From the NCBI GenBank assembly GCA_973895155.1, contig OZ316894.1, positions 1,115,968 through 1,179,967 of the forward strand: DNA of 64,000 nt, in the 5' to 3' direction. The notes beneath the pieces are model-generated. The model did no database searches. It saw nothing but the letters and a program-made list of their open reading frames with translations, and was not told the DNA's origin. The position numbers and the translations under genes were made by a program. The stretch is from Marsupella aquatica (taxonomy: Eukaryota; Plantae; Marchantiophyta). Numbering within the stretch: position 1 is the first letter of the stretch; each line of letters begins with the position of its first letter. Positions 5,067-58,838 of this stretch are shown here, in pieces.

Positions 5067-6298
5067 CTCAATCAGTACGTCCAATGCACCGTGAGCAAGG
5101 TCGGCAAGAGGACCAAGAGACTCAGACTCATTCAGCTGTGGCTCATGCTCGAAGATCATTCTGCTGCTAGAGAAATCTCTTTGATTACGTACATTGCCGT
5201 CAACGCAATGTGAGCTTCTTCTTGCTTTTGCCCCCTGATGAAGTCCTGTCTGCTTAGCGCGCTAGAAGCAGTTTGTCCTTTATTACAATCAAATCGACAT
5301 CAACTTGCGCTGCTTCTTAGCTGTTGGCCTGCGTGCCTGGTGCAGAGAAAGCGCGCAGGAGGAGGCAGTAGGAGAAAGAGTAGATTTGCTCTTGCCTACT
5401 CCGCGGGGCTCAGGGCCATGCTACGTGAGACGGACACAGTACAAGAGACGTTTTATAGACGATAGTTATTCATCGGGATTTGTTTCAGACAAGGTCATCC
5501 ACAGCATGGCAAGACCTTGATCTTCATGGATGCAAGGAAGAAGATATGAGTGACGCTGTGACGCTGTGACGCAGCTAGCCGTTCCGACCGCTCTACTCAA
5601 TCATGCGAATGCAGTATCGGCTGTTACTGACTGAGTTTTAAGATCTGGGTATGGCCCGGAATACTCTATCCAGCCAGTTTTGAATTTATCTCAAGTTGAG
5701 CCCAGTGCTAAGTTAGTGCTTCCGATTAAACTCGATCGAGACACAGTACCTTCCTGCAAATATAATCTATTTAATTGACTCGAACTATTCTCCTTAGCAC
5801 TGTCGAGAAGTTAAATTGTCTGCTTTCGATCAAGACTGACTCGTGCCACGTAAAGCTAATTGCAGTTGATCGTCTCTCCTAACGATAGGATGGGTGAAAA
5901 GTCCCACTGGATATTTCTTTTTCTACGTCATTGTTCTGGAGAGAATTGAATATATATCACAGAGCTCAGATATCTCAGGCGTTATCTGGTTCACTAATCC
6001 TACGTGGAAAATTGTGGGAAATGGTTCTTCGATCACAACATCAATCAGTCACACTGAAAGACATATATGATGATTTGGGGATTGGGATCTTCCAGCCGCA
6101 TAGGATCAATAACTGTTAGACGATTAAGGCACTAGTCTAGTGTACAGCAGTCCTAACGGCGACCTAGGAGCTGATTTGTCAGTCATCTTATAATTTGTGA
6201 TGCGAATTGCAGAAATCAGTTAATTCCTTTGTTTGATACTGAGAGTAACGAGGAAAAGACCGTGGATTAATCCTTCCATGTATTGGCCTAATGTAGAG

Positions 6299-9200
6299 AT
6301 GGCAACAGCGATTAGAGTCACTCTTCTCCGGTTTACCATCATCACCGTTGTCATCCTCGTCAACGGGAAATGGTCTTGTTGGGGTTCTATCCACAGCAGT
6401 CTAGAGAGACATGCTGCAGCGGCGTCAAACGGGATGGGACGAGCCACTAGTTCTCCAGGGTTCAATCTGGTATCCACTGGTGCGTCCAGTCCTACTCTTC
6501 GCACACGCTACAAGATAAGGAGAAGACAACTCTCGTTTGCGCGAAATGAAAAATTCTATCCGATCGAGTCAAGCAAGGAAGTGGAAATTCTCATGTCTTT
6601 CAAGAGTGAAATCACGGGCGATCCGCTGGGAGTGCTGAGCAGCTGGGGTGCAAATGATACTGATCCCTGTAGATGGACGGGGGTTCAATGTTCTCCGAAC
6701 TCCAAGTATGTCACCACCATCGATCTGGAGGGCCGTCACCTGGTAGGAACGGTCTCAACCCTCCTTGGTCAGCTTTCAAATCTGCAGCATCTGGACCTGT
6801 CGAAAAACTTCCTGCACGGCGCAATACCAGCAAGTCTTGGAAACTGCTCCAATCTGTTATATCTCAACATGTCCTTCAATGAACTGCATGGATATATCCC
6901 GCAGTCAATGGGGAATCTTGGCAAACTTCAAAGTCTGGACTTGCTCACCAACAACCTCACTGGAGGAATTCCAGAAGCACTCGGCAACTGTTCGGCCTTT
7001 CAGTATTTGGAGTTAGGTACAAACGTTTTGGACGGTAGCATTCCTTCTCAATTCGGCGCGTTGACCAATTTGCAGTATCTGAGTCTCAGGTACAACTCAA
7101 TTTCTGGCTCCGTTCCACCTTCTTTGGGTAATTTGTCATCACTTACCGAGTTGTGGTTGAATTACAATCAAAGACTGGGCGGAGAGCTCCCGTTCCAGTT
7201 GGGAGAGTTGATTCACATGCAACGTTTTCACGCATTCGAGTGCAGCTTCCAGGGAAGTTTCCCTATGTGGGCCTTGAATCTCACTTCACTGCAGGAACTC
7301 AGATTAGATCGGAATCAATTCAATGGACCATTACCTCAGTCCTGGAGACAATTACGAAATCTTTCCTGGTTGGGATTGGAATCCAATCTTTGGGATGCAT
7401 CTGAGATTCCACGTGATATAGGTGCACTGACTAATTTGCAAAATCTTGACCTCGCGAATTGTGGTTTCGTCGGAGACATTCCAAGATCTGTATTCAATCT
7501 CAGCTCCCTTGTGTCTCTTTTACTGCCCGAGAACCAGCTATCGGGTACTGTCCCAAATGAAATAGGTTTGCTCAGATACTTGAAAGAACTACAACTGGAC
7601 ACGAACGCTTTCAGCGGCGTATTTCCCTGGAACTCAATATCGAATTGTTCACTCTTAGAGGTCCTCTCGGTGGGATATAACCAAGGATTTGATCCTCAAG
7701 GTTTTCCCTCCTGGATAGGATCATTACAAAATTTGCAGAAGTTTGACTTTTCTGAGATGAATCTGCAGGGTGAAATACCCACAGAGATAGGTCAACTATC
7801 CCAACTAAGTTTTATTTCAATGTTTATGAACAATTTGTCGGGAGCGATTCCAGCTTCTCTGAGGAATTGCAGTTTTCTTTCCGTTCTTGATCTAGGCGTC
7901 AATCAGCTAACCGGTCAGGTTCCCCCCGAGTTAGGACACCTGTCACAACTGCTCTTTGTCGCTCTTGAAAGCAATTTCTTCTCCGCTGGCCCTTTCCCTA
8001 CCTTCATCTTCAATCTAACGTCAACCTTGGAGTTTGTACAAGTTGACCATAATCAATTCAACGGGAAGTTAGCTGGAGATTTCGGAGCCTTCCAGCTATT
8101 GAACACGTTTGCTGCTTCACATAACCATTTTCACGGCCCGCTTCCGGAATCCTTCAGCAATTGTTCCAATCTGGTCAATTTGGTTTTGTCAGGAAATACC
8201 CTGAGTGGGGAAATCCCCCTCGGGCTCGGCAATATGACCAGTCTAGAGTTACTTTATGTTGACAGCAATCAGCTTCATGGAAGTATTCAGGGTGACTTCC
8301 TGAGGAACTTTCACTTGATGCAATCCCTTGATTTCAGTAACAATAATTTGAGTGGTACTATCCCAGCAGAGATTGGCCAGCTTGTCTATTTGCAGCAGTT
8401 GAATATGTTTACAAATAATTTCAACGGAGCACTTCCGGATTCCTTGAGGAACTGTACACAGTTGCTAGCAGTGGACTTCTCATACAATAGACTGACCAGC
8501 AGTATTCCCGGGGAAGCTTTTGCAACGATGTCGTTACTGAATAGCTTGAACTTATCGGCCAATCTATTTTCTGGTTCATGGCCATCACAGTTTAGTGCAC
8601 TGCAGCACATTGTTGTCATAAATGTCTCCGCCAACAACATCTCAGGACCAATTCCTCTGGGCCTCGGAGCATGCCTTTCGCTGCGAACCTTGGATCTGTC
8701 TTTCAATCGGTTGTCAGGACCGATTCCTCCAGATCTTGGATTGCTTAAGGATCTTACCACGTTCAATGCTTCTTACAACAACTTAAGTGGGTCGATTCCT
8801 AATTCGGGTGCTTTCTACGCCAATCTGACGTCGGCATCATTTTTGGGAAATCCTGGCCTGTGTGGAGCTATATTGGGGCTTCAACGACTCTGTCCAGTTG
8901 AATCTATAGCGTCGCCAAAGGGGAGATCACATTGCAATGGTTTCGAATGTCCCATTGTGTGGATCTCGGTCGTTTCTGCTCTGGGCTTTGTTATCGTTCT
9001 CCTGGGAGCCTTATATATCTCCTCCCGTTATTACGGCAAGAGAGACAGCGGGAGCGGGAGCGGGGACCTTGGACTCGTCTTATTTACAACTGATCCTTCG
9101 ATGAGGTTCTTTACGAAGTCGGACATACTTACTGCCGTAGGAGCTGGGGAGAACGCTGCAATTGGAAGGGGTCCCAAAAGCATTGTGTACAAGGCTAGTT

Positions 9201-10304
9201 TACCCGGCGGTGAGTTTATAGCCATCAAAGTTCTGCAGGATCGAAGGCCATCTAATATTGAGGGCGGGATTGAGAGACAGAGTCAAGATGAAAAAGAAAT
9301 CTTGAGCGAGGCCCACACGCTTGCTCAGTTACGGCACCGAAATATCATTAAGCTTGTTGGGCTGTACTCTAGTGAGGATATGAAGGCCATCTTGCTAGAA
9401 TACATGCCCAACGGAAGTTTACATGAAAACCTGCATGGAAATGCTCCGTGTGAGTTGACTTGGGTAGAAAGATTCAAGATACTCTTGGGTGTGACCAATG
9501 GAATGGTGTACCTTCACCATGAGTTTCCAGACCCGATCATCCACAGAGATTTGAAGCCAAGCAACATACTTATGGATGCAGATATGGAACCGAAGCTTTG
9601 TGACTTTGGCATTTCCAAGTTTGTGACATACAACAACGGGGACAATGGGGAAGTGTCCGCCTCAACCATTTGTGGCACCTTTGGCTACATGGCCCCAGGT
9701 GAGACTGTTCTACTGATTAATTTACTCTATTCTTAAACTCAATCTGACAGACTGTTCTCCTTATTGACAGACATTAATTTAACGGAACCTCAATAATGTA
9801 CTCTGAGAGACTATTATTTACATACTTAGTACCAAGACTTAGCCTGTTAGTATTGGTTTTTGACTTTATTTTCTTCCATTGGTTGACCCAGAATATGGGA
9901 CAGGTACGAGAGTGAGCACCAAAGGAGATGTTTATAGCTTTGGAGTGGTTCTTCTTGAGCTCTTGACTGCCAAAGCAGCTGGACAAACTCAAAGCATGAC
10001 ACCTTCTGGCCAAGATGAGGGTCTAGTGGCCATAGTACAACATTGTATTCAAGAGTCAAGCATGACACCTGTAGCTACACCAGTAGATGTCCTTGACCCA
10101 ACTCTCAAAATTGAGGGTGCTAGTGATGCTTTCATTGGGCAGCAAATGATGTTAACTTTGCAGTTAGGCCTTTTTTGCACGAGGGCGCTACCTGAAAATC
10201 GTCCATCCATGAATGTTGTGCTGGAGTTCTTAGTTGAAATTGAGAAGATAGGTCAGGGAACAGTTACACAAAGAACTTTGGATGACCTCCTCAGGGACGA
10301 GTGA
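6299..10304 (+). CDS. LRR receptor-like Ser/Thr kinase, copy 2 (LRR-XI/XII-like architecture); exons 6299..9698 and 9892..10304 (alternative ATG at 6278)
   Basis: Signal-peptide-like N-terminus, LRRNT (LSSW...PCRWTGVQC), roughly 30 plant-type LRRs, TM, RD kinase with a single intron at GYMAP|EY (gt 9699, ag 9891). Open through TGA at 10302-10304. Confidence 0.95.
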
Positions 10305-21926: not shown

Positions 21927-22693
21927 TTTTCCTGGGCAAGCACCCAAAGAAAAGAGGGCGCAAGATTCTCTGAGGGGTCCGGTGCCGTGTACTGAAGCGG
22001 GGTTGCATTCTTCACAGGAGGATACCGTCCGTGTACGCGACACTCATCACATCGACACAACAATCGCAGCAGCAGTTGATTGCCCAATTCGCCATCATTC
22101 GGAACGTGGGTCTTGCCAAGCATCCCCGCAATTTAATAATCATTCCATGGCTGCCTGCGACTCCATCGCACCCCTCCTTGCTTGCTCGCTCCCTATTTAG
22201 CTTCGCCGCGGCCGTCGCTGGAGTCTACATTCCATCGATCCACATCCTCGGATCTCGCTGCGACGCGTTTTACGAACTTTTCTAGTCTATCATATGTTGC
22301 TAGAGAGCCGGGGACTGACGGAGATTCGGGACCCACGCGAGTTTCTGGGTGGGCGTTTGTTGGATTGTAGCTTGTTAGTGATTGGGTCGTTAGTTCGCAT
22401 CCCCGCGTTTGTAAAGTGTGTCGGGCGTTTGTTAAAGTTTGTCTGTTTGGTCGACATCAGTCTGTGTGCTGAGAGAGCAACAACAGCTTCGTTGTTGCTG
22501 CTAGCTCTCTGCTATTAGATCTACCGACATATAACGTGACTGTTGTCGTTGTTTTTTAGAAGAGTCGAGACTTTCCCTGAGATTGAAGTGTGAGGTGTGT
22601 CTTGAGTGGTGTGGAATTGAGCGCTCGATCGTTTTGGATCCGGGAGTAGTGTGCCCGGAGAAACGGGCTCTCCAACAAGGCCTGGGAGTGGAA

Positions 22694-23224
22694 ATGGATC
22701 CCACGAGGGGGCAAACTTTGAGCAGCGGAGGAGGATTCATTGACTCGTCCAAGGTCTTTAACGAGTTCTTCTTCAAGAGCGAGGCCGAGAAGCCAGCCTG
22801 GATGTCGGCTGCCACCGAGAAGTGCATGAACGGGAATACGTCCGACGACGAGGAGAACCTGCTGGATGATGCCTGCTCGAGGTACTTGTCGAGGACATTC
22901 AGCATTGACTCGTCGGGTTATTACTCCAGAACGTGCAGTCTGGAGTCCGAGGACGCATTTACTAACGATAATGAGCCTGAGACGGTGGTGGTGCTCCGGG
23001 TTGCCATGTGCTGTGGGAAATGCGAGAACAAGGCCAAGTCCTTGACGCAATTGGAAGGCGTGACATCGGTGGTGTGCGACAGGAAGACCGAAAAGGTCAC
23101 CGTGACCGGCACTGCACGGCCCAGAGACCTTCTCGAGGCGTGCAAGAAACTGTTCGAGCAGGCCAAGATGTGGAGCCCTGATGATTCTCTCAGCGATCTC
23201 AATTCTGCAGCACTTCAGTGGTAG
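22694..23224 (+). CDS. Heavy-metal-associated (HMA) domain plant protein, HPP type without C-terminal CaaX, 176 aa, single coding exon
   Basis: VVVLRVAMCCGKCENKAK...LEGVTSVVCDRKTEKVTVTG is an HMA fold with a CxxC metal site. Acidic/Ser-rich N-terminus. Confidence 0.85.
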   Translation: MDPTRGQTLSSGGGFIDSSKVFNEFFFKSEAEKPAWMSAATEKCMNGNTSDDEENLLDDACSRYLSRTFSIDSSGYYSRTCSLESEDAFTNDNEPETVVVLRVAMCCGKCENKAKSLTQLEGVTSVVCDRKTEKVTVTGTARPRDLLEACKKLFEQAKMWSPDDSLSDLNSAALQW

Positions 23225-31295: not shown

Positions 31296-32705
31296 ATGGA
31301 AGGCACCCCTGAAGAAACGGGGCAGTTGGAAGGGAGACGATCCTTACTTAAAAACCAGCAAGAAGGTTCGCCCATGGCAGATGTATTCAGATCGTTCGAA
31401 TTTATGGAGGAAAAGTCTGGCTCCGGCCGAACTTTGCGTTGCAGAACTCTGGGCCACGTTGACTACTGTTTCCTTATTATGTAATCGTGCTCAATCCTGG
31501 GGACTGTTTGGCTAGGTTGGAGATATGACAAGTTTGAGGGAATTTGGAGCTTTTGGCAGAACTCCAAGTTGGAATATGACTCCGAATCATTATCCGGAGT
31601 GAACATCAGCATTGTGACGAGGGCTTTGGAGAGTGGTGCAGTTTGCCTGGATGGATCACCCCCTGCATACTTCCTTGATAGAGGCGCTGGTGAGGGTGCA
31701 AACAACTGGCTCCTTTTCACGCGGGGGGAGCTTGGTGCCAAAATGCTGATAACTGTCTACAACGTTCATACACAGAACTGGGTTCATCCAGGCAAATGCC
31801 ACGTCGTGTTTGGTTTGAAGGCATCCTCAGCAGCTCTCCTGCTGCCAACCCAGATTTTTACAACTGGAACAGGGTATTTTTGAAGTATTGTGATGGGGCT
31901 TCTTTTAATGGAGATGTAACCGAAGTGGGGTTGGACACCAATTCCTGAATTGATGGTACGCCTCTGGTTGTCTTCTACCGAGGGCAGAGAATATGGAAAG
32001 CTGTAATGGGAGAGCTTATGGAGAGAGGCATGAAAAATGCTCAGAAGGCATTTCTTTCTGGTCGCTGAGCAAGGGGCCCAACAATCCTGCATTGTGATCA
32101 GTACCGGGACATGATACCAAACACAACGGCTGTCAAGTGCCTCAGCGATGCTGGCTTTTGTTTTGACATACCAGATGTCAGTGGGGTGCAAATCATAGAA
32201 GTTTTGTATGCTTGCGCTGTCCAATTGCAGAACATGGTTGAAAATTCGCCAAAGTATTGTACCTCTGAAAGGGAGGCAACTTGGTGCATTTTCCCTGAGT
32301 ACATCATAACAGGATTAAAAATACCGTTATTCATCCTCAATGCAGGGTACGATTCATGGCAGATGGACAACATTCTTGTTCCACCGACTGCCGATGCTAC
32401 AGGCATTTGGGATGACTGCAGGAGTGCTCTCTCATTATGTTCTGATGCCCAATTCAGGGTTGTACAAGATTTTCGGGATAGCCTTCTGAAAAAATTACAA
32501 CCACTCCTTCAAAGGGAAAAAGACGGGGCATTTTTCTACTCTTGCTATTACCACTCCCAAGCTCAAGATGGTGAAACCTGGAATGGTCCAAAAGTTGACA
32601 ATTAAATCGATTGCACAAGTTGTTGGAGATTGGTACTTTGAGCGTAATTTTACAAAAGTTATTGATTGTTCATTTCAGTGTAACCCAACCTGTCCAGAGT
32701 CTTGA
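31296..32705 (+). pseudogene. Pectin acetylesterase (PAE/Notum family) pseudogene, intronless
   Basis: [80 protein letters not shown]. Stop at 31482-31484, frameshifts near 31725 and 32603, and the GCSAGG nucleophile codon is TGA (32066-32068). Confidence 0.9.
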
Positions 32706-34099: not shown

Positions 34100-36104
34100 C
34101 AAACGACTGTGATGAAGAGAAACTGCAATTAAAGCCGGAACCGGCTATAAGTGTGCTTGCGTTACATGTCTAGGGGTGCTTCCCTGAACCGCCCAGCGAA
34201 CCAATCTAATCTCCAACCCATGCAACTCCACTCTCCTCGTCAAATCATCCCCTCGAGTCTCCCCCACTCACTGAACATTCTCTCCACTGCTGACTCTCCT
34301 GCAGCCAGAATTCGGCCAAAGCCTCTCAATTCCCGAAGATAGTGATGCCTGTCTGTGCTGAAGACATGGTAGTGGATGTCATATAGCACATTGGCCATGA
34401 CGACCTCCGTCGGGTATGGCCAAGAGTAAGTGGGAGAGTAAGAGGTGCACAAGCTGACGGGAACTCCCGCATGTATTGGCAAAAGGTGCAACTATGTTGA
34501 CACTAGCTGCAACTGTGAACAGAACTACAAGGAGAAGTGTCGGCACTATTTGGGGCTTTATCCCCGGAAGTAAGATGAGGGTACATCTTTATGAGACGCC
34601 AATTCCCAGCCCGGGAAGCGATTGAACGAGCATCTTCCATGGTTCCACCAAGGATGGGTGACAATCATATTTGGCGCCGCGCGGAAGCCCCTCTCCACAA
34701 TTGACCAGCTTCATATGAGCCTCCCGCTTCCGAAGACAGAAATCGATGTCTTCTCCTCCACCCGTCTTGGGGAATCTGGGATCGAACAAAATGTCATCAT
34801 TGTTGCGTCGGATCAGGAGATTTGCAGTGACTCCCCAGGGTATATCTTTGCTCTCAAGTACGTCGTCACACCCCAGAAGAATGTCACACCTGACATCACT
34901 ACTGCACTCGAGACCACGCTGTTTGTGGGATCTGGGAGTTCGGTGTGGCCAACAAACCCGCAGGCCTTAGGATACCGCCGAATCATTTTTTCTGCTTCCA
35001 GAAGAATACGAGGATCAGGAACGACGTCGTCATCGAGGAATAGCACGTAGTCCGCAGCTGATTCTGCTAACCCGCAATTACGAGCTTCACTTGCACCTGT
35101 GTTGGTAACGTTAATTCACCCGGATACAAATGAAGGCATCGGGTTCGTGTCGCTTCTTCAGCTCCGGAATGTCTAGCGAGAGTCGGTCGTCGACTATGAG
35201 TATGGTCATGGTCGAGCAAGTTTCAGACGGCTCCAGGTTGATGATGTTCTAGATACCCAGGAGTGGGGACTACAACGTCCAAAGTGAGAATTTCAAGAGG
35301 AAAATCTTGTGATAGAGTACTTTGGTGTTGCGTCAGCCACCGTCTAACCTTTGCAGCACCATCGTCAAGGGCATAAAATGTCCAATCGTGACGATGTTTC
35401 TTTCGATAGCGGGGCTGTTTGCTTCCCCCCATTGTGTTTTCTAAAACAACGTCTTTAATAAGCATTAGGGAACCCCATCTCCAATAAAGTTGAAACAGAT
35501 ATGGATCTCCATCTTGGTTCTAAAACTCCTTCGGAAGGATTTCTCCGTTGAATATCTCCAAATGAATTCGCCCCATGACAGGAAAGGTCCAGAATCCAGG
35601 AGAGTAGCCATCGGAGAAAGAAATACAGCCAAACCCTCGAGGGACTCCTCCCTTAGATTCCAACTCGCAGAACGCTATGTCGAAGCTGGACATCCAACCT
35701 GGAGTCTTGAGAACAATGTTGTCACCCAGAAGGACTGTGTAGTGACACTGATCTGTATGCGCTCTCCTGGCAAGGTCCCGCCATATTGCACACATAGAGC
35801 CAGAAGGGTAGAAGAACACCATCGTCTCCACATTTTCAATTCCATGCTCTGTAAGGACCTGCTCAACTGTGTTGCTGCTTGACAGAAACTTGTCACTCTC
35901 ATCAACCCCAATATAGACCTTCAGCTCGTATCCGACATCACGGATCTTGCAGACATCGCAAGGACATGTGTCTCCTTCCGTTGTTTCTTTGAGGCTCTTT
36001 GAAAAGTTCCTGAGACCAAGAATGCAGCCATCTTTGCCTCGGAGACCTCTGGAGGTAACCAGAAGAAGGACACCGAACTTTACACTTCGTGTATTGAAAT
36101 CCAT
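34100..36104 (-). pseudogene. Two-domain glycosyltransferase family 2-like pseudogene with C-terminal TM region, intronless
   Basis: VLLGDNIVL, GFGC, F*NQDGDPYLFQLY (TAG 35520-35522), LDVVVP, GASEARNCGLAESAADYVLFLDDDVVP (DxD), FPKTGGGEDIDFCLRK, HPWWNHG, RMFSEWGRL. Several frameshifts and stops. The 3' boundary is approximate. Confidence 0.8.
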
Positions 36105-36889
36105 GATCTCAATAAGCGCTAAAGAGAATTTGAATCCAGTTCACTGATCACAGTCACCGACTTATCACAAAACAGAAAAGAGTTTGAATTACGGACAATA
36201 CACTTTGAAAAGGCACTTGCTGTTCAGGCTGGGGCTCATATATATATAGACAGAGCCTCGGGGCGATCAGGAGACACGAGAAGGCTTGCTCGTTGGAATG
36301 GATTGGAGAGATCATGTTCGATCAGACACGCTGGGGCTAGAGCCTAGAACGTCTTGGGAGTGAGAATCTTGTCGACCTGATTTCACCGGGGTTCAGCTTA
36401 ATCTGCACGAGTGTTAAGTGTTACTGGGAAATTCCTTTATTGTTGCCCATCGGGTAGTAAGTTATTCAATTCCATGTTGCCCATCTACGCTTTATTGTTG
36501 CCCACTGGTTCCTCCCTTTTCAATGCTGTTTTGTCTATGGGTGTTGACCATTGTTCACACCAAATGAAGATATGAGGTTTATGTCTATGTTTGAAAGCTA
36601 CCCAGGGTGCAAGGATACACACTTAAGTGTAAAGTTTACTTGACATTAGTTGTGAGAGCAAGCAGTTCCTTGCAGCGAGTGAGGTTCCAAGCGCAAGTTA
36701 AGGGTCAACCCGCTTTTGCACAAACCTTCATCCCAAAGTGGTGTTCACCAAAGCCCTTTGCTCACAAAAAACTTACTCTTAGAGTTCAATGTCTCTCGTA
36801 TCATAAATGGAAATGGGAGGCATCTAAAGGCATATACCCCCACCAAAGAACAAAAAGCTCCAAACTAGGAGACAATATCCCAAAGGTAG

Positions 36890-39611: not shown

Positions 39612-41852
39612 TCACTTCATACTCGAGTGTTGGAGTCTTTTCACCTGCGGATTTCCGAGGGTGGAATGCACAAACCCATATTGCTCTAGAACCTGATTAT
39701 CAGCGAAATCGAATGCGCGTTTGAGTTGGGATCGACACTCATCCACCTCGAAGTTCCCCTTCCTATCCCCGCAAGGCTGGCAGCCAGCGAAATGCGTGAT
39801 CCACGGCCAGCTCATTGACCCAAATCCCTGATCGGCCTTCGACATGCTCTCGTACCTGGGCGCGATTAACTTCCAGTACCCGCTCATGCTGAATTCCCTC
39901 TCGAGGCGGATCCTCGGAATCCATTTTTTCTCCTTCTCTTCCTTCTCCATCACCAGCATGTAGAGGAGGGCCGACTGATCATCTGCAGCTGCACCTAAGT
40001 CCCGCCCGACGAGCACTTCCGATGCTCGCCTCCCAGACTCTATTCTCGCTTGCTTGGTCCCTAGACTAGCCCAGACGTCGAACAGGTCTAGAGTCCACTG
40101 GCAGTTTCGGGCGAGATAGACCCCGGCGTTGACTGCAATCCAGTCATTCACCGCAAGAAGCTCGGCATCCCCATAGAGAACAAGGTTTTGACCCTTAAAC
40201 TTCTCATATGGAGGAGTGAAAACCATATCGGTGATAGCAGCGTCGCCATCGCACCACCAGAACCATTCCACATCGGGGTGGGAGAGCATGAGAACTCGAA
40301 TCGTGGGGATCTTCGTCCACCAGTAATCCAGCTCCCGGTCGAAATCGACCTGGCCGTAGAACATTGACATGTCGTGAAAGCGACCATAATCCACCTTGTT
40401 CTTCAGCGCTTGCAGAAGACCGTGACCTCCGTCAGGATGAATGCACTCTCTCGTCGATGAACCAGTGACGATCATAGTCTTCGGCAGTCCTTCGTCATTG
40501 ACCCTCTTCACGCCGGGGTTCTTCTTGAACCAGGCCTCGCGCTGAGCGTCCCAGTTCTCCACCCTGGGGCCGGGGAGTTTGTGGATGCCGAAGCCTTTAT
40601 AATCAGGAAGAGGCACTTGAGGGGACGGGACAACATTCTCGAACATATGCCCAGGAATAGGGACCAGCTCGTTGATACCAAGTCCGCGGAGCTGATACCC
40701 ATACCTCCGATACACCTGCTGATCCGCGAAATCCATCGCACGTTCCATCCCTCGCCTGCATTTTTCCCACGGGTAAGCTCCCTTTCGATCCCCACTGGGC
40801 AAGCAACCGGTAAAGCGCGTCACGATAGGCCATCGAGGATCTCCACGGCCATAACCCTCCAGCTCCTCCAGCTCCTCGGTCACCGAGGTCCAATCCCTGT
40901 TGAGGTAAATGTCCTTCTCCAAGTAAGTCTTCGCATACCACACCGATTTCTCTATCGAGAGAAGGTACACTAGAGCTGATTGATCATCAGCTTCTATGCC
41001 CTGCGGTCGATCCTGGAGAGAATCAGAAAGGAAATTCCCGACGGACTCTCTCTGGTGAACGTTTCCCATGGAGGCCCAGGCGTCCAACAGGTGAAGTGAC
41101 CACTGGCAATTCCGAATGAGAAAATTCCCTGTACCGAGGCCCTTCCAGTCCTTCAGCTCGAAGACACGATGCTCATCTCCAAAAACGACCAAATTATAGC
41201 CCTCGTATTTGTCTAGAGGAAGCTTGAACTCCATGTCAATGATCACAACGTCGTTGTCCATCCACCAGAGCCATTCCACCTCTGGGTGAGCCAACATCTG
41301 CATCCGCAACACCAGGAGCTTGGTCCAGCTCCCTACAAAATCCTGGTCCGGTTCCATTAAATTATAAAACAGCTGGAGATCGTGTACTCGTGAGAAGTGG
41401 ACCTTGTTCTTAGCTGTTTTGAGGTACATGTGCGTATCGACAGGATTCTCGCATCGGGATGGCTGCGAGCCCGTGACAATCAAAACCTTCGGCCTTCCAG
41501 CTCGAACATCAGGATTCTTTTGCCACCAGCGAGTTCGTTGGGAGTCGAAGTCGACCACTCGAGGCATTAAGGCAAACGAGGTGTTCCTCTCCGTCGCAAT
41601 TTCTGGTAGTGCGTTCGACGAGACGGATATCTCGTAACTGCGGATTTTCAAGAGCTCCTCGCTGTTGCCATGGGGTATGTCTTCAAAGTTTCCTGGACCT
41701 AATAACATGCACATCATTAGCAATGCGAACACGATGATGCCTAGTACTTTAAATGGTTTCTTGCAAGAAACTCCTTTGGGATTCTGGACGCTGCTTAGAC
41801 TCCATCCTTTGCCGCCCCTGGACGAGAATTTAGGATCCTTCATTGTCGACAC
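39612..41852 (-). CDS. GT34 family glycosyltransferase (xyloglucan xylosyltransferase / galactomannan galactosyltransferase-like) with two tandem GT34 domains, 746 aa, intronless
   Basis: Type II TM anchor, then twice: D.QR..W...NP, IVTGS, KNKV, W.K, MLxHP.VEWxWWxDxD, G..L.RNCQW.L.L.D.WA, ADDQSAL.Y, T.F.GC.P, RA.DFAD.QV. Confidence 0.93.
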   Translation of the reverse strand: MSTMKDPKFSSRGGKGWSLSSVQNPKGVSCKKPFKVLGIIVFALLMMCMLLGPGNFEDIPHGNSEELLKIRSYEISVSSNALPEIATERNTSFALMPRVVDFDSQRTRWWQKNPDVRAGRPKVLIVTGSQPSRCENPVDTHMYLKTAKNKVHFSRVHDLQLFYNLMEPDQDFVGSWTKLLVLRMQMLAHPEVEWLWWMDNDVVIIDMEFKLPLDKYEGYNLVVFGDEHRVFELKDWKGLGTGNFLIRNCQWSLHLLDAWASMGNVHQRESVGNFLSDSLQDRPQGIEADDQSALVYLLSIEKSVWYAKTYLEKDIYLNRDWTSVTEELEELEGYGRGDPRWPIVTRFTGCLPSGDRKGAYPWEKCRRGMERAMDFADQQVYRRYGYQLRGLGINELVPIPGHMFENVVPSPQVPLPDYKGFGIHKLPGPRVENWDAQREAWFKKNPGVKRVNDEGLPKTMIVTGSSTRECIHPDGGHGLLQALKNKVDYGRFHDMSMFYGQVDFDRELDYWWTKIPTIRVLMLSHPDVEWFWWCDGDAAITDMVFTPPYEKFKGQNLVLYGDAELLAVNDWIAVNAGVYLARNCQWTLDLFDVWASLGTKQARIESGRRASEVLVGRDLGAAADDQSALLYMLVMEKEEKEKKWIPRIRLEREFSMSGYWKLIAPRYESMSKADQGFGSMSWPWITHFAGCQPCGDRKGNFEVDECRSQLKRAFDFADNQVLEQYGFVHSTLGNPQVKRLQHSSMK

Positions 41853-43800
41853 TGATGGCCTGTCACAACGAAATGTATCAATTCCTCACAAATCTCACGA
41901 GTCTTTCCTCCTTTTGAAGAAAAACCGCACTGGAGTGCGCTTGACGATGATTTTCATCAGGCACGTCAAATCGAACCAATCTCTGCTCCATCAGCAGCGC
42001 CTCGTTGTAGTTGCCGAGCAAGTAGCTCAAGATTGTAGAGTACACAGGGATATAAGCAAAGGCGGCGCATGCAGGGAGAGTTGTTTGCCTCCCGAGGACC
42101 AGCTATTGTCGCGTAGCTTAAAGGGGCTCCCTAATGCAACAATGTTCGAGACGACACAAATTCCGAGCTACTGTTGCAACGAGCCAGTCCGCGCTTATCA
42201 AACAACGGACAGGTTGCTGCCAGCGCGTGGAGGGACGCTTTATGAGGGAAACGAAGCATCCATCATCAATGCTCCTCGTCCAAAGTTTGAAACCCGAATC
42301 CAGAGAGTGCACAGTTGCACACAACCCCTACGTAAACCTCGGCCTCAATCTACGGTACTGTAAGTAGCGACGAAATGTCCTCTCGAATCTGTCGTCCAAC
42401 TCATCCATCTGCAATCCTGAGAATGCACAGTGGAATCATACCGGGCAACTTTACCTCCGCCAACCTATTAATGATGCTCCTCCGACAAGCTTCGGAAACA
42501 CCAGCCTCTCTGCCCACACCCTCCTGGATGCACTTTTCCCCTCCCACTCCGACTTCCGTCATGCGAGCTCACCCTACAGTAGTCCATAGTCCATACCCAC
42601 GGACGAGAAGACGAGGGCTACCTCTGTTGTTGAAATCACGCACGTATATTTAATAACCCGGCTGGACGTTACATAAACGTGAACTACGCCGAGCACTGTA
42701 GTGCTGAACTAGAAAAAGTTACTGCAACGTTAGTCAAGTACGCACATGCCCTCCTCGGCTCCTCGGCAGCCTTATTATCGTGGAAGAGGATTTCAAATAC
42801 CGTCTGTCACAAACGAACGTGGCTAAATCTCTTCGAGCACATATATCATTCTGACGGACCCGACCTATCCGTGATCAATCACTATTTCGTGGCAAAGAAC
42901 GTGCAGTACATTTGAAACAGAGAAGTCTCTGTGGAGCCCACACGGTGCTGGATAAGTCTTGTGGAGCCCGGAAGGTCCTGCAGCAACAACAGTAGTGAGG
43001 GCCTGTTCAGTGGATGGGAATCAGCTTATTTTTTTAGGGCTTTTTTAATTTTTAGCCAGTGTATGCCTAATGTTTGCTTCTCTAAGGGAGGAGATTCTAG
43101 GAATCTTCTCTAGGAATCTTCTCTATCAGATTTCGCTGAAGGAAATCGTGACCGTCAGATATCCCGAGATTTAAGGAGAACCGTTCGATTCTGACTAATG
43201 GGTCCATGATTTGGTGGAAGAGTGGCTAATGGTGTTAAAAAATATAGCAAATATTAGCCAAAAGTGGCCAACATTTTGGGGGAGGGGAAATTTGGCTAAA
43301 ATTTACACTTTTAAAATAGGCTGAAGAGAATCCCCGGTGAGTCGGTGACCCTGTCTTTGGATTCAGCACGATTGGTGTCTGCAAGAATTAATGTTGTACA
43401 GCTGTACGCTCATTAAGGCACTATTACACAATTGATAGGAGCAGCACCCTGCACCTAGATTGACGACAGCAAAGCTACACTCGTGAACGACTCGATGCTC
43501 CATCTCTACAGTTCTTGGTCGTCTGGTGGCCTTTGCTTTGCTCAGGTTTTTTAATCATGAGAAACATGATGTGTGTTCCATGAGGTATGCGAGAGTCCAC
43601 TCTGCAGAAAGAGCTGCTAGGCTTGAGTCCACTGGTGGATTGATTTTTGACATGGGGAGACACACTAACTCACTGTTCTGTAAGTTAAGTTTTGGGACAG
43701 CAACTGAACAGCACCGCAAATGGCACTCCATCGCCGGATTCTAAGGAAAGTCATGAACGACAAGGTCCGTAGAGGTCTACATGTGTGTGAAATGACACGA

Positions 43801-53950: not shown

Positions 53951-54808
53951 ATGATTACCAAGTGAGGTCCAATAGCAGATTTATGAATTTGGCACCTAAA
54001 GTAAACAAAACATGGGTAAGATTATTGGTAAAGTGTTGAGCCATTTTTCACTGGGGAAATGGAGTTCCCATAAGTTTTGGGACTTGCATAATACAGACGC
54101 TATCCAGGTGCTGAGTTCGGAGATGCCCTAGTAGCACGACTCTTTCCTGGACGAAGTCTTATAGTACTGTAGCCTCAGAGCACAAAACGTGATGACTGTG
54201 TCGCTTTGCTCGAAAGCTTTTCGGTGAGCAGTCCGAGCTTTCCTCAATTCATCGCGAGTTTCAAGAACAAAAGCCGCAATTCGGACGATTTCCATGGACT
54301 AAACAGAATGGCCTCGGAAAGCAGTGCTCTCGCCTATGATCGGTTCCAGCTCGTCTGTGCTCTGCCTGGCCAGCGCTGATCCGGTTCAGGTCGATGCGCA
54401 ATCTGATGTTTGGTGTTTGGCTGAGAGCTGCTGCTAGCTGCCGCTCGGTCTTTTAGCTCACAGCTTCTGCTCGGCTCCAACGGGATTGTGATTTTGGGGT
54501 CGCGTCGCTACCCGGTGGCAGTGCTCTGAAGCTCGTTAGAAATTACAATTTAGGGGTTGCAGGGAATGTGGTGGCTCGCCCGTGACTGCAAATTGCTGTT
54601 TTGAGGGGATTTCGCGTGATCTAGGAAACATCTTTTCGTCCCCGCCTCGACGTTTTCTGCACCAGACTGTTGGAGGCACAGCTCTTGGACCTAAACCTGC
54701 TCAACCTGCCTTGCCTTCAATCGAAACGCACCCAGACAGAGAACACTCATTCGAGGTGTGGGCTAGTTGAGCAGGCGAGGGAGAGGAGGGGAGGGGAGGG
54801 AGTTCGAG

Positions 54809-55042
54809 ATGACTAGAGGAAATCAGAGGGAGAAGGATCGGGAGCGCGCGGCCGCGAGAGGGCCGGGATCGAAGATGAAGGACGACGGGCTGACTCCGTT
54901 GCAGCGACGGGAGCGCGACGCCAAGGCGTTGCAGGAGAAGAACGCCAAGAAAGCTTCGGGAGCCCCGGGTGGTGGTGGTGGTGGTGGTGGTAGTGGTGCT
55001 GCTGCTTCCTCGACGGGCTCTAAGGCGCCTGCGAAGAAATGA
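54809..55042 (+). CDS. SERF / 4F5 family small EDRK-rich protein, 77 aa
   Basis: MTRGNQREKDRERA...DGLTPLQRRERDAKALQEK is the SERF consensus. (GGT)n poly-Gly tail. Confidence 0.93.
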   Translation: MTRGNQREKDRERAAARGPGSKMKDDGLTPLQRRERDAKALQEKNAKKASGAPGGGGGGGGSGAAASSTGSKAPAKK

Positions 55043-56680: not shown

Positions 56681-58838
56681 TCAATTGTGTGCGTTTGGTT
56701 GGAAGAAAAAAGTGCCGTGATCTGAATCGTCTGAAACTGCCCACGAACCCTCCATGACCACTTTCAGTTCCTCCTGTCCCGTTGCAAGAGAATGACCAAT
56801 GGCTCCCATGTAGAATACTGCGGGCCTTGCTTTGTACTGCTTGATCATTGTTACCAATGCGTACTGACTTTCCTGTTGGAAGCGACCTGTAGATCACTCG
56901 GTAGATCATGGAGACACATTTCAAAGATGGACAGAGTAAGTAATTTGAAGTGCGTAACACAATTACAACAGTTCCACTAACGCTCTGAATTTGTCTTCAA
57001 AAGCATCACACAACTCACCTAACCAGGTGTAGCCGATCATTTCGTCCACTCCACTGCCAAAGATGTTATTTGAATTTGTGAAGAGAATTCCGCCAATCAT
57101 TCTAACTTTCGTATTTTGCTGTATGAAGAAACCCTTCCAGAGCTGCATCACCCCTACCTGCACAATTCGAGCTTCCGCTCCATTTGCAACTGACTGACAG
57201 CTCTGCAGTTCAAGGTGGAAATTGCTTTGTAACAAGGATCCAGACTTCCAAGTGCCATCCATGATGTTTTCCCTGATCTCACCATCGTACTGCACGCTGT
57301 GCTTCCCAATGTACTGCTTGATGAAGTGAACCCTGGTCCCTCTGCATTCACCTGTAATTAATCACAACCTTGAACATCAGACTGCCCTTGATGAGGCCAA
57401 TTTAACGCATGTAGAAACATCGCTAAAAATTGTAGCCAGAGATACAACGCTCTTGCTCTTCAAATTGAAAGTAAGCATTTGACTTAAACTAGTACAAGGG
57501 GTTGGTCCACTTTTTTAACAAAAACAAACGGACTTAAACTTGTATATGTGAACAAGCTTGCTTACAATTGGGGAAAAAGAACGGAAAAAGGAACTGAACG
57601 ATCTGTGGAAATAGTCGATATGCAAAGATTTGACATGACTTGGTGTCTGGGTATATTGTAGTTTACCTTGGCATGTGAACAACCCGACTTCATCACTACC
57701 ACCACCACGAATTCTGTGGTTGGCCGCAACGACAAGTTCCACAGTCATAGCACCCTGTTGGGAGCCTTGCGTCCAATATCCAGTCCAACATTGCACCTGA
57801 CTTGTCTCCGTCGTGGAAGCCTTTACACCGCTATCCTATACAATGTAAAGCAGATTTCCCTGTCAGTGCTTTCACGCACAGCCATGTAATTCGATTGCGA
57901 GCTACAACTACTCGAGATTCATGCCGACAGAGATCTGGATAAGGGACTATTCAGGACTGATGATGAACAGAACGGAAACTGTTTAATTTGACATCAATCA
58001 CATTATCAGCTTACAAGAAGGAGCTGAGCTCAAGCTGACATATGACAAGCAATCTCAAACACAAACAGCGCACCTGCGGCTCAACGGAGAAGTGCTTGAC
58101 AGGTCGCTGATCACCAAGGACGGTGCTGATAATGTTCTCCACAGAGCTCTGAGGAGGCTGGAAAAGGTTATTGATCTGCCAGGGGCCAACCAAACAGTCA
58201 CCGTAAAGAAGTGCTCTGGCTTGGAGCTTGGCTTTGTTACTTGAGGCCGAGGGACCCGATAGAAACTGACGCGCAACGGGAAAGTCGTGCAGCAACTGAT
58301 CCCAGAAATGAGGCCATTTCGCCTCGAAAACGTTCGTCAATCTATTTCTCCAGAATTCTCGCATCTGCGGGTGCTCGATGCGCTCGGACGGTCCTCTAGA
58401 AACCACGTTCTGCAGTATGTAGCCCCGATAGTCAGCTGCGTGAGCATCCAGCCGCTTCCACAGATCCGCGGAGTCCAACTCCACGTCATTGCCATTCACA
58501 AATCTTTCCATCCATCGTTGTTGCAGAAATTTCTCCACAAAGCCCACCACTTCCGTCATTGTGGCTCGGAAGCTGTTCACAAAAGCTTTGAACTCGTCGT
58601 TTTGAGGCCTGGATTCCGCTACATACTGCTCAAGCATGCGAGAAAGCATGAGAGACCGCTCCGACAGCTGCACTACCAGCTTCTGATTCTCCTTACTCAC
58701 ATCCTTCGCATCCAGCGAATTGGCCGTCAAGAGAGCCACCTTTGCCATCAATTCGACTGCCGTATCAGCTGGCGGCGGCAGAATCTGTGCAGCTTGTCCT
58801 AGTGTGACTGATAGCATCTTCCATGTACTACTCGCCAT
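56681..58838 (-). CDS. 490-aa protein: MLKL/RPW8-like N-terminal four-helix bundle + Cbl EF-hand-like segment + two tandem beta-rich repeats; exons 58838-58074, 57835-57667, 57351-57019, 56886-56681
   Basis: All three introns are GT-AG with consistent phases (0,1,1), giving one open frame to TGA at 56681. The internal repeat W.G...Q...M.......I.G.G.DE.....G......IKQY.....V.Y.G......M.G.W occurs twice. Domain names are motif-based inference. Confidence 0.8.

Follow-up and report, generated by a model that had tools for sequence, protein, structure and literature searches.

A candidate one-piece sensor-executor gene of the liverwort Marsupella aquatica, with a predicted MLKL/Cbl-like helical bundle, a Cbl-type EF domain and twin avidin-fold barrels

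The 64,000-nucleotide stretch of Marsupella aquatica DNA analysed here (from contig OZ316894.1; the whole stretch is called the window, and positions are counted from its first letter) carries at 56681..58838 a minus-strand gene whose product is predicted to join a helical bundle, a Cbl-type EF-hand domain and two beta-barrels. An initial annotation, made from the sequence alone, had read this locus as a clean 4-exon gene of 490 amino acids (aa). When the spliced frame was computed, the four exons gave 1473 nt and 490 aa with a single terminal stop, and the three introns were all of the GT..AG type. Exon 1 (58074..58838, 765 nt) encodes residues 1-255 and contains the motifs that had been quoted for the N-terminal part. 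It covers an extra amphipathic N-terminal helix, alpha0 (residues 3-17, 58788..58832), a four-helix bundle of the MLKL/Cbl-4H/RPW8-type fold (residues 21-147, 58398..58778) and a Cbl-type EF-hand domain without canonical calcium loop (residues 152-244, 58107..58385). After intron 1 (57836..58073, 238 nt, phase 0), exon 2 (57667..57835, 169 nt) encodes a linker and the first half of barrel 1 (strands 1-4); intron 2 (57352..57666, 315 nt, phase 1) separates it from exon 3 (57019..57351, 333 nt), which encodes the second half of barrel 1 (strands 5-8) and the first half of barrel 2 (strands 1-4); and intron 3 (56887..57018, 132 nt, phase 1) precedes exon 4 (56681..56886, 206 nt), with strands 5-8 of barrel 2 and the stop codon.

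The protein is colinear from end to end with P0001 of Calypogeia fissa (499 aa), at identities of 58% for residues 1-140, 60% for 141-255, 57% for 256-360 and 50% for 361-490, and the bundle, EF domain, linker and barrels of the models cover all 490 residues. Together with the splice sites, the single frame and the codons at which introns 2 and 3 are shared with Sphagnum-type loci, this colinearity confirms a real four-exon minus-strand gene, as modelled from genomic DNA and homologues. Neither the four exons nor P0001 gave a Pfam match to the kinase, NB-ARC and LRR domains that had been reported as lacking. No paralogue of the gene lies within the 64-kb window. It is highly improbable that the gene is an artefact or dead, even if the junctions of the Marsupella gene are known from genomic sequence alone and one Sphagnum-type copy, L006, is broken: the 490-aa frame stays open in two haplotypes, dN/dS (ratio of nonsynonymous to synonymous divergence) against the Sphagnum-type locus L002 is about 0.2-0.3, with dS saturated, annotated family proteins exist in Calypogeia and Ceratopteris, and uninterrupted relatives of 504-507 aa lie on contigs of 1.7-2.1 kb, which leave little or no room for introns. 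The contigs of the four runs compared retain the introns of the gene.

In the AlphaFold2 (AF2) model of exon 1 (predicted local distance difference test, pLDDT, 78; predicted template modelling score, pTM, 0.56; 13 sequences), helix 3-17 is followed by a four-helix bundle at 24-147 and a small helical domain at 150-241. Human MLKL matched the bundle with Z 10.4-10.7 and a root-mean-square deviation (rmsd) of 2.4-2.7 over 116 aa; its alignments begin at model residue 20-22, so that alpha0 precedes the position aligned to MLKL residue 1, and its 19-20% identity was the highest among the top structural matches. NRG1 reached Z 8.1-10.0, AtMLKL3 9.9, Sr33 9.7 and the four-helix (4H) domain of Cbl (Cbl 52-179) 9.3-9.4. 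Pfam MLKL_N matched the window exon and six family proteins at E 5e-4 to 0.016, all under the cut-off, and when a family profile was compared with the PDB the five best matches were all MLKL (E 0.16-0.21), while PDB searches with single sequences returned chance matches only. The bundle sequence may thus be said to lean weakly to MLKL. Of the three bundle types proposed by the initial annotation, an MLKL/RPW8-like bundle is retained as a prediction for residues 21-147 (MLKL Z 10.4, NRG1 10.0, MLKL_N below cut-off), and an MCAfunc-type bundle was not recovered, as no MCAfunc match appeared at E up to 10.

Residues 152-244 matched the EF domain of Cbl-b (171-256) with Z 9.6 and 2.4 Å over 84 residues, and alone they matched the EF domains of both Cbl-b and c-Cbl (2.4-2.5 Å), so that the Cbl EF-hand-like region suspected after the bundle is now a predicted EF domain. 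The pattern of a canonical EF calcium loop was absent from 7 of 7 family proteins, and an Atlas search with the EF part gave no usable match, all template modelling (TM) scores being under 0.5. Since these residues also match the Cbl EF domain, Cbl entries dominate the Foldseek list of exon 1, with 215-237 aligned columns and E 0.06-0.6. The main alternative to the reading proposed below, which we consider possible though less likely, is that the protein is a non-lytic scaffold resembling the tyrosine-kinase-binding (TKB) module of Cbl, in which the twin barrels replace SH2, bind a peptide end or a modified residue and recruit partners. The 4H and EF domains each match Cbl separately and in the same order, the barrels of Gid4 and Gid10 match those described below at Z 8.9-10.7, and barrels of this kind are joined to U-box/RING, B-box and DnaJ domains in single relatives. 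What speaks against a scaffold is that no SH2 or RING match was obtained, that in sequence the bundle is akin to MLKL and not to Cbl_N, and that the bundle+EF unit is carried in the effector slot by an algal STAND-TPR protein.

The latter protein is P0098 (PNH01923.1) of Tetrabaena socialis, which is annotated as a kinesin light chain and has the make-up of a nucleotide-binding leucine-rich-repeat-like (NLR-like) protein, with two bundle+Cbl-EF units, an NB-ARC/AAA region and TPRs. Residues 5-236 of the Marsupella protein are colinear with its residues 554-858 (probability 97.2, E 3e-11), Cbl_N2 matched it at E 0.02, and the bundle+EF unit occurs twice in it, directly ahead of the NB-ARC/AAA and TPR region. 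By this alignment the unit is shown to be homologous to the effector-slot unit of the algal protein.

The initial annotation had also described the C-terminus as two beta-strand repeats of barrel-like character. The corresponding region of the Calypogeia protein P0003 models as two 8-stranded barrels (pLDDT 89.9, pTM 0.83, 48 sequences), and the two repeats of the gene align with a score of 88, where 500 shuffles reached 46 at most; the repeats can therefore be described as two predicted barrels of the avidin fold. The best natural matches were rhizavidin (Z 12.4), OmpA (12.3), agroavidin (12.1; 1.7 Å over 92 aa), streptavidin (12.1), Cap15 (11.7; 3.2 Å over 104 aa) and Gid4 (10.7); agroavidin, Gid4 and Cap15, a receptor of cyclic dinucleotides, are binders of small ligands. 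The barrel family has no model in Pfam, PADLOC or NCBIfam, the last scanned with 24 proteins; the barrel profile gave no match to PDB sequences at E 10, Pfam Avidin did not match the barrels, and the Pfam/PADLOC scan returned no Cap15 match, with filters that lose weak matches. No viral folds were found at E 0.001. The Atlas neighbours of the barrel were unnamed bacterial and eukaryotic clusters, one of them a rotifer TIR_2 cluster, and a neighbour with 16% Avidin that scored 0.80 is a lead only. One to five barrel copies were present in 144 of the 168 proteins examined, and over 272 copies an Asp (100%), a Lys (98%), a Tyr (99%), a His (81%), a second Tyr (88%) and a Trp (88%) are conserved, most of them sitting at the hairpins between strands 3-4 and 5-6. 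In barrel 1 of the Marsupella gene these are the invariant Asp303, encoded by exon 2, and Lys323, Tyr325, His329, Tyr333 and Trp346, encoded within 57019..57351 by exon 3; in barrel 2, exon 4 keeps Lys438 and Tyr440 and the conserved His is missing. From the strand positions and the structure of avidin, which binds biotin at the equivalent hairpin end, we infer that the conserved residues line a pocket there. Such conserved polar residues are what would be expected of a ligand site, and the barrel is likely to be an unnamed, very widespread candidate ligand-binding domain, as far as the models can tell.

In order to place the gene in a family, P0001 was searched against 1.84 billion representatives, which gave 409 matches at E 0.001, and the best 150 of these were considered. 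The full-length architecture was found in Calypogeia (P0001, P0003), in two Logan proteins and in Ceratopteris richardii, where KP509_03G042500 is accompanied by the close copies 03G042600, 03G051200 and 03G051400, and chromosome 3 of this fern carries at least four loci of the family. The two Logan frames, 507 aa on a contig of 2078 nt and 504 aa on one of 1694 nt, are uninterrupted and are most simply taken as spliced transcripts. A match from Adiantum covers the N-terminal part. Six metagenome loci (L001-L006) have an exon 1 in the same cluster as a Sphagnum jensenii protein, and barrel exons come after it as far as the contigs extend. In two of them, L001 and L002, the codon and phase of introns 2 and 3 agree with those of the Marsupella gene, according to a best-scoring model that has a GC donor at intron 2 and in which the position of intron 1 is not pinned. 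The bundles of two Sphagnum-type copies show few changes (dN 0.064, dS 0.054), and L006 (6001-8989) lacks the ATG, changes frame within exon 1 and runs into a stop in exon 3. Judged by these homologues, the gene architecture is common to liverworts, Sphagnum-type DNA and ferns. No seed-plant, Marchantia or Physcomitrium name occurs among the named matches, several others being unnamed and clusters concealing members; a profile search gave no family member among proteins of 889-2535 aa, which is weak evidence, and a search for near relatives yielded 5 proteins and overlooked known members, so that its negatives carry little weight. A barrel-only gene of Ceratopteris also derives from the family: P0018 (KP509_07G029900), like P0032, consists of twin barrels only, and both may be decoys or truncated copies. 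The four or more loci on Ceratopteris chromosome 3, the barrel-only derivative and the L006 pseudogene point to copy turnover by birth and death. Because introns 2 and 3 occupy the equivalent place in barrel 1 and barrel 2, the second barrel arose by duplication, intron included. In a quick barrel tree of 110 of the 278 copies, with mostly weak support and no claim as to a donor, plant repeats 1 and 2 group separately and both stand apart from the bacterial copies of the Planctomycetes-Verrucomicrobia-Chlamydiae (PVC) group; if this weakly supported tree is correct, the barrel duplication is older than the split of bryophytes and ferns.

Fusions of the barrel were counted in 74 relatives, most of them longer proteins. 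A TIR_2 domain was fused to it in five (Salpingoeca and Hydra among the named ones), an aquaporin (MIP) in three, and U-box/RING, B-box, DnaJ, MORN, PLAT, a galactose-binding domain and ricin-B with DM9 once each. P0017, P0026, P0033, P0035 and P0107 are holozoan proteins of 610-790 aa in which three barrels alternate with TIR-like domains, and the rotifer cluster of the Atlas is similar. Solely the last TIR of the TIR-barrel proteins, with Salpingoeca infusionum and Hydra vulgaris as named examples, keeps the Cys-x-x-Glu motif, which we take to be catalytic, and no description of this architecture was found in the literature searched. P0038, P0117 and P0125 consist of an aquaporin and two barrels and are candidate ligand-gated channels. 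The aquaporin fusions would also suit a subunit of a cation channel of the MCA kind, outside immunity and gated by a ligand or by stress, as would the age of the family and, as described in PMC11663713, the sufficiency for Ca2+ permeation of an MCA N-terminal region with an EF-hand-like motif. Neither MCAfunc nor PLAC8 matched at E up to 10, the protein has no transmembrane segment, and copy turnover with a pseudogene is better suited to immune genes, so we regard this channel as improbable. Among bacteria, 80 stand-alone barrel loci were found, mostly in Verrucomicrobiota and Planctomycetota, and PADLOC matched 3 of 113 distinct nearest neighbours, two methyltransferases and one caspase-like protein.

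A second haplotype is represented by contigs of the runs X3 and X4, which bear another organism label; the comparison covers 40 of the 41 variant rows. All four listed insertions/deletions fall outside exons, and none of the 18 listed coding substitutions creates a stop. A 107-nt deletion within intron 2 (window 57414-57522) segregates in contigs of X3 and X4. Barrel exons hold 16 of the 18 listed coding differences (p 4e-4); their variation is 2.3%, against 1.1% in non-coding sequence and 0.3% in exon 1, and three of their codons carry two changes each. This pattern agrees with a sensor free to vary and an executor under constraint, and haplotype structure could mimic it. Positive selection on the barrels is not supported (ratio of nonsynonymous to synonymous variation, pN/pS, 0.85). 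The clustering of changes, with its three doubly changed codons, could also mean that the protein is an executor whose barrel surface senses a microbial glycan or an effector protein instead of a messenger in a pocket. Lectins of the OAA family (BOA, rSfL) head the Foldseek list of the twin barrels (E 1e-4 to 5e-4, TM about 0.3), and one relative combines the barrel with ricin-B and DM9 lectin domains. The same lectins are absent from the 50 best rigid alignments, pN/pS is near 1, and the invariant polar residues also occur in free-living bacteria and protists, which suggests a universal ligand; sensing by the surface is for us an unlikely explanation.

Taken together, three folds (bundle, EF and barrels) are predicted by the models, and we propose that the protein is a one-piece ligand-gated membrane executor, to which we give a probability of roughly 0.5. 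In this model the barrels would take up a small ligand at their conserved polar mouth and would then drive clustering. The EF spacer would relay this to the N-terminal helices, which, once freed, would perturb a membrane or open it and so trigger cell death or defence signalling. The pocket for the ligand, the oligomerisation, the action on membranes and the role in immunity are inferred steps. The executor role gains indirect support because the N-terminal unit heads the algal STAND-TPR protein and because TIR-barrel fusions exist. In PMC11218826, Cbl-N-type coiled-coil (CC) domains of non-flowering plants are described as killing cells and forming membrane puncta, and cell killing by CC(Cbl-N) NLRs of such plants is reported in PMC12512272. 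For Cap15/2TM-beta, PMC10419184 and PMC13692257 describe a barrel that binds nucleotide, oligomerises and damages the membrane. By analogy, the logic of the executor would be the sensing of Cap15/2TM-beta combined with the executor of CC(Cbl-N) NLRs.

Several observations weigh against the proposed executor. Designed repeats and unrelated bundles reach Z 10.6-13.3, equal to or above MLKL, so that the fold alone cannot pick MLKL, and MLKL_N matches the window exon at E 0.0012 with 18.8 bits, under the cut-off of 27. Helix 3-17 is additional, ahead of the MLKL start; fungal BaMLKL/Goodbye-like effectors have an added N-terminal helix too, and in 10.1101/2022.03.16.484565 the authors leave killing by them open. 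The MAEPL motif was absent from the window protein and 8 relatives in a plain text match, and the search for a transmembrane helix gave a best 19-residue Kyte-Doolittle value of 1.1 (1.0-1.6 in the family). Residues 20-244 resemble the Cbl 4H+EF unit no less than an MLKL bundle and align in the same order to this unit, a non-lytic scaffold. As to the sensor, the top barrel matches (avidins, Cap15, OmpA-type and designed barrels) are tied in what is a common fold, the His and a Gly that is 97% conserved are gone from barrel 2 of the gene, and the barrel pN/pS (0.023/0.027) is near neutral. Most eukaryotic barrel proteins lack an immune domain, and the genes of the window place the gene outside any NLR cluster. 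Bacterial barrels have varied housekeeping neighbours, with no cyclase or TIR among the 113 nearest ones, which speaks against a barrel dedicated to defence in this bacterial clade.

A more specific form of the executor is conceivable, in which the barrel would be an undescribed receptor for nucleotides made by TIR domains, employed throughout eukaryotes, as in the TIR-barrel proteins of choanoflagellates and animals, and the Marsupella protein a one-step, EDS1-independent reader and executor in seed-free plants, which possess TIR proteins but no EDS1; it would be a plant counterpart of Cap15, and we consider it a long shot. In 10.64898/2026.05.20.726525 the reading of TIR messengers by non-seed plants in the absence of EDS1 is named as an open question, and a small soluble barrel with invariant residues, together with a transformable fern that carries the gene, makes the question testable. 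If the executor proposal is true, the known immune repertoire of seed-free plants would gain a receptor class free of NB-ARC and kinase, and a ligand-binding domain that is both new and very widespread would receive a name. In plants, as on an algal NLR-like protein, the predicted Cbl 4H+EF unit occurs with neither SH2 nor RING, which bears on the kinship of Cbl, MLKL and CC(Cbl-N) domains.

Elsewhere in the window, an LRR receptor kinase lies at 6224-10304 (+), with a 1170-aa frame and a 3' exon, and a near-identical tandem copy lies at about 1-820; the two copies show matching antisense open reading frames at 431-817 and 8386-8772. A doubled GT34, with two Glyco_transf_34 domains one after the other, is encoded by a single frame of 757 aa at 39612-41885 (-). 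The other genes encode an HMA-domain protein (22535-23224, +), a pectin acetylesterase (31485-32605, +) and a SERF-like small protein (54767-55042, +), and exons of an unassigned protein at 34589-36140 (-) have glycosyltransferase-like motifs and no Pfam match at E 0.001.

The initial annotation knew of no described protein with this architecture, and we likewise found none in full-text literature, a search that lay outside most subscription papers and one supplement of PMC11218826, on NLR-associated MLKL and CC-X proteins of ferns and mosses, which may include these genes. Neither the barrel family nor the Ceratopteris genes were found described in full-text papers, mostly non-subscription ones, and the Ceratopteris identifiers are absent from three supplements of PMC12512272. 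The gene is likely to represent a known type of four-helix-bundle executor newly combined with an unnamed ligand-binding domain.

When compared with known systems, the protein shares with MLKL and AtMLKL3 the four-helix bundle (Z 10.4-10.7 for the human protein and 9.9 for AtMLKL3) and a weak sequence match. However, MLKL has the bundle at its extreme N-terminus, whereas here helix 3-17 comes first, and the brace and pseudokinase of MLKL are replaced by the EF domain and twin barrels. BaMLKL/Goodbye-like proteins, as described in 10.1101/2022.03.16.484565, resemble it in an MLKL-type bundle with one added N-terminal helix, but have a NACHT domain that the Marsupella protein lacks. With CC(Cbl-N)/MAEPL NLRs, as presented in PMC11218826, it has in common an N-terminal Cbl-N-type bundle and the bryophyte and fern lineages, while NB-ARC and LRR are missing and a Cbl EF domain is added. 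Cbl itself is organised as 4H-EF-SH2; the likeness extends to 4H (Z 9.3-9.4) followed by EF (Z 9.6), and the Marsupella protein has two barrels after EF, without SH2, linker, RING or canonical calcium loop. MCA1 and MCA2, according to PMC11663713, also consist of an N-terminal helical unit with an EF-like region and a C-terminal accessory domain, but here no match to MCAfunc or PLAC8 and no transmembrane segment was found. Avidin and streptavidin are the best natural fold matches of the barrels (Z 12.1-12.4, rmsd 1.7-2.0 Å), although identity is 12-15%, other residues are conserved, and the Marsupella barrels are C-terminal in a multidomain protein. Cap15/2TM-beta, from CBASS, Panoptes and type VI CRISPR, is similar in its C-terminal 8-stranded barrel (Z 11.5-11.7), in conserved and possibly equivalent tyrosines of the pocket, which is putative in the Marsupella protein, and in a membrane-acting N-terminus to which that of the Marsupella protein, with its putative membrane action, may be likened. 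It differs in showing 8% identity and no profile match in scans whose filters lose weak ones, in having two transmembrane helices instead of a helical bundle and one barrel instead of two, and in that the bacterial relatives of the Marsupella-type barrel do not lie beside cyclases. Therefore, as the defining features of each are missing, the protein is not an MLKL, a CC(Cbl-N) NLR, a Cbl, a Cap15 or an MCA protein.

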